64,000 bases of DNA from Escherichia coli (GTDB lineage: Bacteria; Pseudomonadota; Gammaproteobacteria; Enterobacterales; Enterobacteriaceae), in the NCBI RefSeq assembly GCF_016903815.1, contig NZ_CP069973.1. One strand, 5' to 3'. Both the position numbers and the translations under genes were made by a program. Below, piece after piece: positions 42,547 to 43,436 of this stretch. A model generated the notes under the pieces. That model was not told the origin of the DNA and ran no database searches. It saw only the letters and a program-made list of their open reading frames with translations. Numbering within the stretch: the first letter of the stretch is position 1; every line of letters begins with the position of its first letter.

Positions 42547-42952
42547 TTACTGCATAACAGGTTGAATGTCGTGGATACGTACAAAGCCTAACTGATCCAC
42601 AGAAATACCCTTTAACTGTAACGGAATATCAACATCGCTGGGGGCGAGGACGCTGGCAGGGGCGTTAATCAATTGATTCTGCACATTGATTTCCTGAAAG
42701 TTGTCTATTGTTCCCTGAATTTGCCCATATTCAACAGTTCCGCTGAATGCGGGCAAGGGATCATTCGACTCGCCCTGAATACGTAGCGTCAGGGTGGTGC
42801 CATCTGTATCAGGCGTAATATTCACCAGCGACATACGTAAAGTACCGATCTGGCTTTCCAGTCTTGCTGGTGTTTTCGCTCCAGGCAGAAGGTAAACCCC
42901 ACTGCTGGATTTTGCATTCAGCCTGTTTTGCTGAGTGATTTTGACTGTTTCT
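42547..42952 (-). pseudogene. yajI: yajI lipoprotein gene, 3' portion (interrupted by IS605-family element)
   Basis: Open frame continuous from about 42952 to the stop at 42547; joined to the 5' portion it gives 537 coding nt (179 codons) if the IS occupies about 42953..44699. Confidence 0.75.
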
Positions 42953-43436
42953 TTATCCGGTGCGCCGTAAAACCCCGTCCTTCAGGGCGGGGATATAAGG
43001 CGCGGTTTTCCACCTGACCAGGTGTTTGCTGTTGTTCAATGTATTGGCGGATGACGGATATTGGCGCACCTCCGCAGCTACTGGCAAAATAGCCAGGACT
43101 CCACAAAACGCCTTTGTAGTAATACCTGACTGCAATATCTGGTCGATCTCGTCGCAGTCACCTACCCGATACGCCTTTGAGGCTGTTTACCAGACTGGAT
43201 ATCGCCAGTTTGGGAGGATAGTTAATTAACAAATGGACGTGATCTGGTTCGCCATCCATTTCAACCAGTTCAGCTTCAAAATCAGCACATACATCTGAAA
43301 AGTAAGTGCGTGGTTTTTCTGTCGCGTCATGGTCAAAAATCTGGCGTCGGTATTTGGGACAAAGACCAGGTGAACATGCATCAGGAAAACACAATGCCTT
43401 CCACGCCGGATATCGGTTTCTTTTTTCACAGACCAA
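42918..43436 (-). pseudogene. tnpA: IS200/IS605-family tnpA (HUH Y1 transposase), disrupted by at least two frameshifts
   Basis: Three frames carry consecutive TnpA segments: ..HVHLVFVP | KYRRQIF...DHVHLLINYPPKLAISSLVNSLKGVSGR | WSPGYFASSCGGAPISVIRQYIEQQ; first shift is at the short A-run in GTCCCAAATACC. Confidence 0.8.

Follow-up and report, generated by a model that had tools for sequence, protein, structure and literature searches.

The 64,000-nt stretch of Escherichia coli chromosome analyzed here (contig NZ_CP069973.1 of assembly GCF_016903815.1; hereafter the window) shows the gene order secF, IS200C, yajD, tsx, yajI, nrdR, ribD, with yajI split in two by an insertion sequence (IS) of the IS200/IS605 family. 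Judged by its ~98% identity to copies that carry this name in RefSeq, the element is an IS609 of the IS605 group. Its Y1/HUH transposase gene, tnpA, is truly inactivated by four independent lesions, one of them a frameshift, and the divergently oriented tnpB retains an intact catalytic core. We read the locus as an old, vertically inherited and decaying copy of IS609 in yajI (probability roughly 0.85), in which tnpB would have outlived tnpA, yet would now be drifting as well. The features that define the locus are the following:

42547..42956, minus strand: 3′ fragment of the disrupted host gene yajI (open reading frame (ORF) list and RefSeq annotation)
42952..42956, plus strand: TTTAT target motif of TnpA and presumed target-adjacent motif (TAM) of TnpB, abutting the left end on its 5′ side
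42957..44703, plus strand: IS609 element of 1747 bp, CCGGTGCG...GGATGTCAA (copies aligned at five loci, and an empty site)
42973..42992, plus strand: left-end subterminal hairpin CCCCGTCC-TTCA-GGGCGGGG (CCCCGTCCTTCAGGGCGGGG), a direct repeat of the right-end hairpin
43014..43444, minus strand: tnpA pseudogene, Y1/HUH transposase of 143 aa if intact (Pfam and structure matches of the intact homolog)
43452..44609, plus strand: tnpB, 385 codons and a premature TGA, catalytic core intact (Pfam and alignment to ISDra2)
44674..44693, plus strand: right-end subterminal hairpin CCACGTCC-TTCA-GGGCGTGG (CCACGTCCTTCAGGGCGTGG), 10 nt before the TCAA end
44704..44833, minus strand: 5′ fragment of yajI (ORF list and RefSeq annotation)

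The IS609 element in yajI

Over its 1747 bp, the window copy shows 97.5-98.5% identity to those whose tnpA RefSeq assigns to IS609, naming the product of the intact gene 'IS200/IS605-like element IS609 family transposase'. This intact product matches the Pfam family Y1_Tnp (PF01797) with an E value of 1.8e-41 as well as the TnpA structures of IS608 and ISDra2, and the window tnpA is a pseudogene of the intact ortholog with 98% nucleotide identity. TnpB of the window lies above the Pfam thresholds for HTH_OrfB_IS605 (PF12323), OrfB_IS605 (PF01385) and Cas12f1-like_TNB (PF07282). The element thus combines a Y1 tnpA, an accessory tnpB, subterminal hairpins and a fixed target motif without duplication, as is characteristic of the IS605 group. 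A preliminary description, made by a model from the sequence of the window, had spoken of an IS605-like element; domains, ends and the ~98% identity confirm this and point to IS609.

Boundaries were defined by aligning the window with IS609 at ytfA (O157:H7), yeaR-yeaQ, ydcL-ydcO (K-12) and gltX-yfeD and with other copies in yajI. Intact copies measure 1748 bp, compared to 1747 bp in the window. At each of the five independent loci TTAT lies directly 5′ of CCGGTGCG, as TTTAT in four and as CTTAT in one. In strain JP538 the uninterrupted yajI reads CTTGAT followed by TGAGTTGCG (junction TTGAT/TGAG), and the reconstructed empty joint TTTAT/TGAG was matched at 100% identity in strain Ecol_316. 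Comparison of occupied and empty yajI sites indicates that there is no target-site duplication. All occupied sites carry TTTAT, a Lys codon in yajI, and the unoccupied site of JP538 carries TTGAT, a Gln codon; the K-12 genomes among the matches listed differ from the TTTAT joint at one position, as would be expected if they had the G of JP538. The empty TTTAT site of Ecol_316, with flanks identical to those of the window, could represent either the ancestral allele or the product of a precise excision.

Terminal inverted repeats are absent from the IS609 ends, and the two subterminal hairpins lie on the same strand. Both are 20-nt imperfect palindromes that repeat each other directly, and they are the only two matches in the 64 kb, where none are expected; as DNA, the left one folds with -14.1 kcal/mol (z -2.9). 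Between the ends, tnpA and tnpB diverge with 7 bp separating their start codons. An inverted repeat of 17+17 nt with 82% complementarity (43424-43457; TTTCACAGACCAAAATA / TAATTTGACCTGTGAAA) has its midpoint exactly between the two starts and could act as a shared operator or bidirectional control site; both genes begin ...GTGAAA.

The IS609 of K-12 (insQ, between ydcL and ydcO) resembles the window copy in its ends, hairpins and TTAT target, with 97.7% identity over the whole element, and in the divergent gene layout with 7 bp between the starts. Its tnpA carries a TGA at codon 96 and has lost its stop codon, and both changes are also found in the window. In contrast, the window copy differs from that of K-12 by its location in yajI, a 1-nt deletion and the loss of the start codon in tnpA, a stop at Ser386 of tnpB, and four private missense changes in TnpB.

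Lesions of tnpA and their inheritance

On the minus strand between 42918 and 43444, the frame translations show TnpA-like segments that do not form one continuous open frame. Alignment to intact IS609 copies identified four lesions:

43442..43444, minus strand: start codon lost, ATG to ATT (plus-strand C>A at 43442)
between 43357 and 43358, minus strand: 1-nt deletion with frameshift at codon 30 (TCACCA to TC-CCA)
43158..43160, minus strand: in-frame nonsense mutation, Leu96 TTA to TGA (plus-strand A>C at 43159)
43014..43016, minus strand: natural stop codon lost, TAG to CAG (change at 43016; by alignment, in 12 of 14 copies compared)

HVHLVFV lies in one frame, and KYRRQIF...LKGVSGR continues through LRRDRPDIAVRYYYKGVLWSPGYFASSCGGAPISVIRQYIEQQ to IEQQ in a second one, broken only by the TGA. 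The preliminary description had distributed these segments over three frames with two frameshifts, near 43355 and 43160. Both coordinates were right to a few bases, but there are only two frames and one shift; the ORFs 43158..43436 and 42918..43106 share the same phase, and the supposed second shift is the in-frame TGA at 43158-43160. Its view of tnpA as frameshifted therefore holds in that the gene is really broken by one 1-nt deletion, and the remaining damage consists of the TGA at codon 96 and the losses of start and stop. The deletion had also been attributed to slippage in an A-run, with one extra A restoring VPKYRR. However, it maps to 43357/43358, where the minus strand reads GTCACCAGATACC (V-T-R-Y) in intact copies and GTC-CCAAATACC in the window, and the protein sequence of intact copies is VFVTRYRRQIF rather than VPKYRR. 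The A-run itself stems from a separate G>A substitution at 43354, which isolate 362 and strain 101EVA carry although they lack the deletion, indicating that slippage in this run is not the cause.

As a consequence of the TAG to CAG change at 43016, the reading frame continues via the left end into yajI, to 42918. Alignment to solved Y1 transposases identifies the second HVH, in PDHVHLL, as the HUH motif, HVHLVFV as the N-terminal beta-strand, and the tyrosine in RQYIEQQ as the catalytic residue. No frame of the window links a start codon, PDHVHLL and this tyrosine. The pseudogene is already flagged in public RefSeq annotation, where the identical tnpA of strain 7/2 is labeled 'IS200/IS605 family transposase, frameshifted; internal stop; incomplete' and stands next to a yajI fragment annotated as DUF3251.

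At least 40 independent complete RefSeq genomes carry the region 42800-44750 of the window (1951 bp) at 100% identity. A 61-mer spanning the tnpB stop has exact matches in 93 records, and 875 contigs encode precisely this 385-aa TnpB; overall, the yajI site is interrupted in ~340 of 5421 genomes. We compared seven yajI orthologs, namely those of the window, ECCNB12-2, M172-1, AF57, WR14-2, PRO_A-1505-6W-A_ESBL (hereafter PRO) and isolate 362. The deletion, the start loss and the 43354 substitution are common to the window, ECCNB12-2, M172-1 and AF57, which diverge at many other sites. The deletion is thus found in four of the seven orthologs and is absent from WR14-2, PRO and isolate 362 as well as from every other locus. 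WR14-2 and PRO lack both the deletion and the TGA at codon 96 but carry a different nonsense mutation, Tyr76 to TAA, and isolate 362 has the codon-96 TGA without the deletion. These distinct lesion sets indicate that tnpA was inactivated at least twice independently at yajI.

This distribution also bears on the alternative, raised in the preliminary description, that the frame breaks are sequencing or assembly errors such as homopolymer miscalls and that tnpA is really intact. Apart from the position of the shift beside a short A/C run (CCCAAAT), which would suit a miscall, the evidence speaks against it: the identical genomes come from different laboratories and platforms, the deletion recurs in orthologs with numerous other differences, the three remaining lesions are all base substitutions, and the RefSeq pipeline (Prokaryotic Genome Annotation Pipeline, PGAP) annotates the same pseudogene in several assemblies. 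We consider this alternative refuted, its residual probability being practically negligible.

Some of the lesions are shared between loci. The same Leu96 TGA allele is present in IS609 at yajI, ydcL (K-12) and ytfA, with both alleles occurring at yajI and at ytfA, and the ATG to ATT start loss is common to the yajI copies and a remnant at the yedK locus. Such sharing suggests that IS609 copies have undergone gene conversion with each other, or that already defective copies were mobilized in trans.

A second alternative is that traces of TnpA are still made by recoding, which would have to combine a start at ATT or at a GTG five codons downstream of it, a -1 ribosomal slip on the minus-strand heptamer C CCA AAT (43358-43352), and read-through of the TGA at codon 96. 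The heptamer has the form X XXY YYZ in the correct phase, a -1 slip there gives VPNYRRQIF and re-enters the TnpA frame, and the stop at codon 96 is a TGA followed by C, the weakest terminator context in E. coli. However, the heptamer arises only from the deletion and the 43354 substitution combined, and the arrangement is not conserved, as the deletion is missing from three of the seven orthologs and from all other loci. Furthermore, three low-efficiency events would multiply, the stop-codon loss appends a tail of ~37 aa, recoding of IS200/IS605 TnpA is not known, and tnpA shows no sign of constraint, with a ratio of nonsynonymous to synonymous polymorphism (pN/pS) of 0.96 and nine nonsynonymous changes to one synonymous change among the yajI orthologs. 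Being unconserved and followed by the TGA at codon 96, the in-phase heptamer does not qualify as a programmed -1 frameshift site. We regard recoding as very improbable and the slippery heptamer at 43352-43358 as most likely coincidental.

The truncated tnpB and the presumed omega-RNA

RefSeq annotates the tnpB product in strain 7/2 as 'RNA-guided endonuclease InsQ/TnpB family protein' of 385 aa. The following features concern tnpB and its presumed RNA:

44607..44609, plus strand: premature TGA in place of Ser386, caused by C>G at 44608 and carried by no other of the 14 copies
44587..44703, plus strand: presumed scaffold of the omega-RNA (right-element RNA, reRNA), overlapping the 3′ end of tnpB and the right end
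44704..44719, plus strand: presumed 16-nt guide template TGAGTTGCGTCATCTC in the yajI flank, by analogy with ISDra2 and Geobacillus (Gst) TnpB

The normal stop of tnpB lies at 44658-44660, so that the window protein lacks 17 residues of the full-length 402 aa encoded by intact copies. In addition, L4R, K96N, V325A and A373V are private to the window among the 14 copies, together with one synonymous change. The preliminary description of tnpB as preserved is accordingly right for the catalytic core and wrong for the full length: D183, E267 and D363 of the RuvC D-E-D triad are present, as are the CxxC pairs C334/C337 and C353/C356 of the zinc finger. The three acidic residues align with D191, E278 and D361 of ISDra2 TnpB, which we take to be its catalytic residues.

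TnpB of ISDra2 from Deinococcus radiodurans shares domain order and catalytic residues with the window protein and aligns with it over residues 3-376 (E 1e-53). Since the homology ends at residue 376, the 17 lost residues belong to the part that corresponds to the ISDra2 C-terminal domain. In ISDra2 TnpB this domain is disordered and poorly conserved, and its deletion keeps cleavage efficient with slightly lower protein stability (PMC10097598). By analogy, TnpB(1-385) may still be an active nuclease. The analogy is one of family-level protein relation only, and the two elements differ in their motifs, with a TAM of TTGAT in ISDra2 versus a TTAT/TTTAT target here.

TnpB could instead have become a nuclease-dead, domesticated regulator of the TldR type. 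Domestication of enterobacterial TnpB is documented (10.1101/2023.11.30.569447), but the RuvC triad and the zinc finger of the window protein are intact, where an inactivated RuvC would be expected. Moreover, the gene lies within a complete IS609 with both ends, and its guide region is merely the flank of the insertion. We give this explanation next to no weight.

The omega-RNA of ISDra2 overlaps with the 3′ terminal part of tnpB and with the right end, as we presume for the window. Rfam searches at gathering thresholds detected no omega-RNA family in the element; the sole match in the window was STnc490, in the neighboring IS200C. At permissive settings, 44587-44716 gave matches that are all below threshold, to RAGATH-18 (29.5 bits at a threshold of 44.9, E 0.005), to HgcC (24.9 bits at a threshold of 50), whose alignment stops at the right-end terminus, and to sot0042. 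Elsewhere in the element nothing comparable was found, apart from a weaker sot0042 match (E 1.7) at 42972-42993, the left-end hairpin. RAGATH-18-derived RNAs serve as guide RNAs of IS607 TnpBs (PMC11061315). An association with TnpB is also known for HgcC and sot RNAs. For the guide itself, ISDra2 and Geobacillus (Gst) TnpB use the DNA just beyond the right end (PMC10097598; 10.1101/2023.03.14.532601), and in the window this would correspond to the first 16 nt of the yajI flank.

Minimum free energy folds of the tnpB 3′ region vary between near-identical copies, and we relied on them only for the hairpin supported by RAGATH-18. In this hairpin, six copies pair 44596 with 44616 as G-C and five, the window among them, as A-U, whereas three have A.C; the substitutions at 44596 and 44616 are both nonsynonymous in the TnpB tail. 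This covariation fits the idea that the stretch may be constrained as RNA rather than as protein, although the evidence is thin. We considered whether 44596 G>A and 44616 C>T represent a double compensatory change in the window lineage and rejected this as independent evidence, since the ytfA copy of the same genome has the same A/T state. Gene conversion is the simpler and probable source of the A-U state in the window. The nonsense mutation at 44608 falls in the apical, unmodelled part of the RAGATH-18-like hairpin.

Decay of tnpA and tnpB and the mobility of IS609

Among the 14 sequenced IS609 copies compared, tnpA is intact in two, has lost only its stop codon in two, and carries nonsense or frameshift mutations in ten. 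In contrast, tnpB is of full length in 11 copies, the exceptions being the codon-386 stop of the window, a frameshift in AF57 and an early stop in 101EVA. Counted as distinct disabling events, these amount to at least six in the 432 nt of tnpA versus three in the 1209 nt of tnpB (binomial p = 0.013). Segregating changes give a pN/pS of 0.33 for tnpB and 0.96 for tnpA, and of 0.37 and 2.6, respectively, within the yajI orthologs. The copies are not independent of one another, which tempers this asymmetry, and the yedK remnant shows the opposite, with tnpB deleted and most of tnpA kept. Across complete E. coli genomes, a near-full-length IS609 is kept in 4309 of 5426 (~80%), and seven of 43 near-full-length best matches bear the product name of the intact IS609 TnpA, a rough proxy based on an even sample across the ranking. 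Cluster sizes in protein collections, which count distinct sequences rather than copies, were not used for the abundance of TnpA and TnpB.

In the 5′ third of the AF57 tnpB (window positions 43642-43770), ~15 substitutions are clustered together with the 1-nt deletion that frameshifts the gene. The cluster has the appearance of a tract acquired by recombination with a diverged IS609-like copy.

Based on these comparisons, decay of tnpA with persistence of tnpB holds for IS609 generally. That tnpB is retained where tnpA is lost has been well documented for the IS200/IS605 family, and the window is one more, ordinary example; in the literature on IS609, or on insQ with TnpB, we found no study of tnpA decay in IS609. 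Two readings fit the asymmetry and are inseparable here: purifying selection on tnpB and the omega-RNA, or survivorship. Either or both might explain why tnpB outlasts tnpA. Under survivorship, copies with a working transposase would excise precisely and vanish, and long-lived copies at fixed loci would become enriched for dead tnpA.

The stronger version of the first reading holds that tnpB and the omega-RNA are actively kept by selection after the loss of tnpA, either selfishly, through homing that counters excision by a TnpA supplied in trans, or because they are useful to the host. It would account for the low pN/pS of tnpB (0.33-0.37), seen even among yajI orthologs with dead tnpA, for the fewer disabling events per nucleotide, for the covariation of the 44596-44616 pair in spite of two nonsynonymous changes in the TnpB tail, and for the retention of near-full-length IS609 in ~80% of the complete genomes. 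However, the private changes of the window lineage are five nonsynonymous, including the stop, to one synonymous, tnpB is disrupted in AF57 and in 101EVA, and the yedK locus lost tnpB yet retained most of tnpA. Gene conversion between copies can mimic constraint, and a genome without TnpA makes no donor joint for TnpB to cut. On balance we judge active retention unlikely. That TnpA-less IS609 relics at fixed chromosomal loci retain tnpB and the omega-RNA under purifying selection seems to us slightly more doubtful still; if true, it would mean that TnpB has a role in E. coli that is independent of a transposase in cis, for example homing upon horizontal arrival of a TnpA or a function at the level of the host, and the window would then represent one lineage in which this constraint on tnpB has just been relaxed.

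The view that we favor, an old and decaying copy whose tnpB outlasted tnpA, also has to accommodate several observations that tell against it. The low pN/pS between copies may reflect divergence from the period of activity, or gene conversion. Within the window lineage, the 5:1 ratio of nonsynonymous to synonymous changes in tnpB agrees with neutral drift (P = 0.60) and conflicts only weakly with the constraint seen across the family (P = 0.15); as it fits drift, selection keeping tnpB in this lineage is not shown. A scan with the sigma-70 consensus revealed no convincing promoter for tnpA or tnpB, only one weak antisense site, a number not above that in shuffled sequence. Finally, the other tnpA copies were checked in one genome with the identical allele and at megablast sensitivity.

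That genome, the complete sequence of strain 7/2, has three places with tnpA matches at this sensitivity, all of which could be located (yajI, ytfA and the yedK remnant), and all three tnpA copies are defective. The ytfA copy combines the TGA at codon 96 and the stop-codon loss with an intact 402-aa TnpB. In the yedK remnant, tnpA runs into unrelated sequence behind ...GYFVSSC, which leaves it without the catalytic tyrosine and without the left end, and only the first 97 codons of tnpB, the helix-turn-helix (HTH) domain, are left. RefSeq annotates this remnant as an intact 174-179-aa 'IS200/IS605 family transposase' despite the missing catalytic tyrosine. At megablast sensitivity, no intact IS609 transposase was thus detected in strain 7/2, which leaves the element immobile there. 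The comparison with other copies in the same genome, suggested in the preliminary description and carried out here in strain 7/2 as a carrier of the identical allele, shows the yajI tnpA to be one of three defective copies.

Since no frame joins the HUH motif to the catalytic tyrosine, the window IS609 cannot excise or transpose by itself, in line with the earlier proposal of an immobile element. In principle, however, an IS609 TnpA provided in trans could move it, as the hairpins and the TTAT and TCAA cleavage contexts are intact. Likewise, strain 7/2 has in the 402-aa TnpB encoded at ytfA a full-length protein that could act in trans with the yajI omega-RNA. In these respects the window copy resembles the tnpB-only IS200/IS605 elements of G. 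stearothermophilus, in which tnpB and the omega-RNA lie within conserved ends without a working tnpA. Such elements are mobilized in trans only, and ~25% of tnpB genes have a tnpA nearby (Meers et al. 2023, 10.1101/2023.03.14.532601). Unlike in the tnpB-only elements, tnpA is still physically present in the window as a pseudogene, and the genome examined is without an intact cognate TnpA.

For annotation, the locus is correctly described as yajI::IS609 with a tnpA pseudogene (frameshift, nonsense, start and stop loss) and a C-terminally truncated tnpB, and beyond this it has little importance. With many orthologous copies at fixed loci in over 4000 complete genomes, the E. coli IS609 population as a whole could be used to study selection on tnpB and the omega-RNA after transposase loss.

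The window contains a second element of the family, an apparently intact IS200C at 40202-40793 between secF and yajD. Its tnpA ORF spans 40284..40793, is annotated with 459 nt in an identical genome, and is preceded by a full-length match (141 bits) to the Hfq-binding small RNA STnc490. The secF-yajD IS200C is missing in the other yajI::IS609 genomes sampled, where WR14-2 has nothing at this position and M172-1 and AF57 carry a ParDE toxin-antitoxin pair. A second IS609 had been expected in strain 7/2 at the ydcL-ydcO position of K-12, but this site is occupied by IS200C, and a further IS200C lies between fabF and pabC. Judging from these insertions at ydcO/ydcL and fabF/pabC, IS200C looks to have been recently active in the lineage of strain 7/2.

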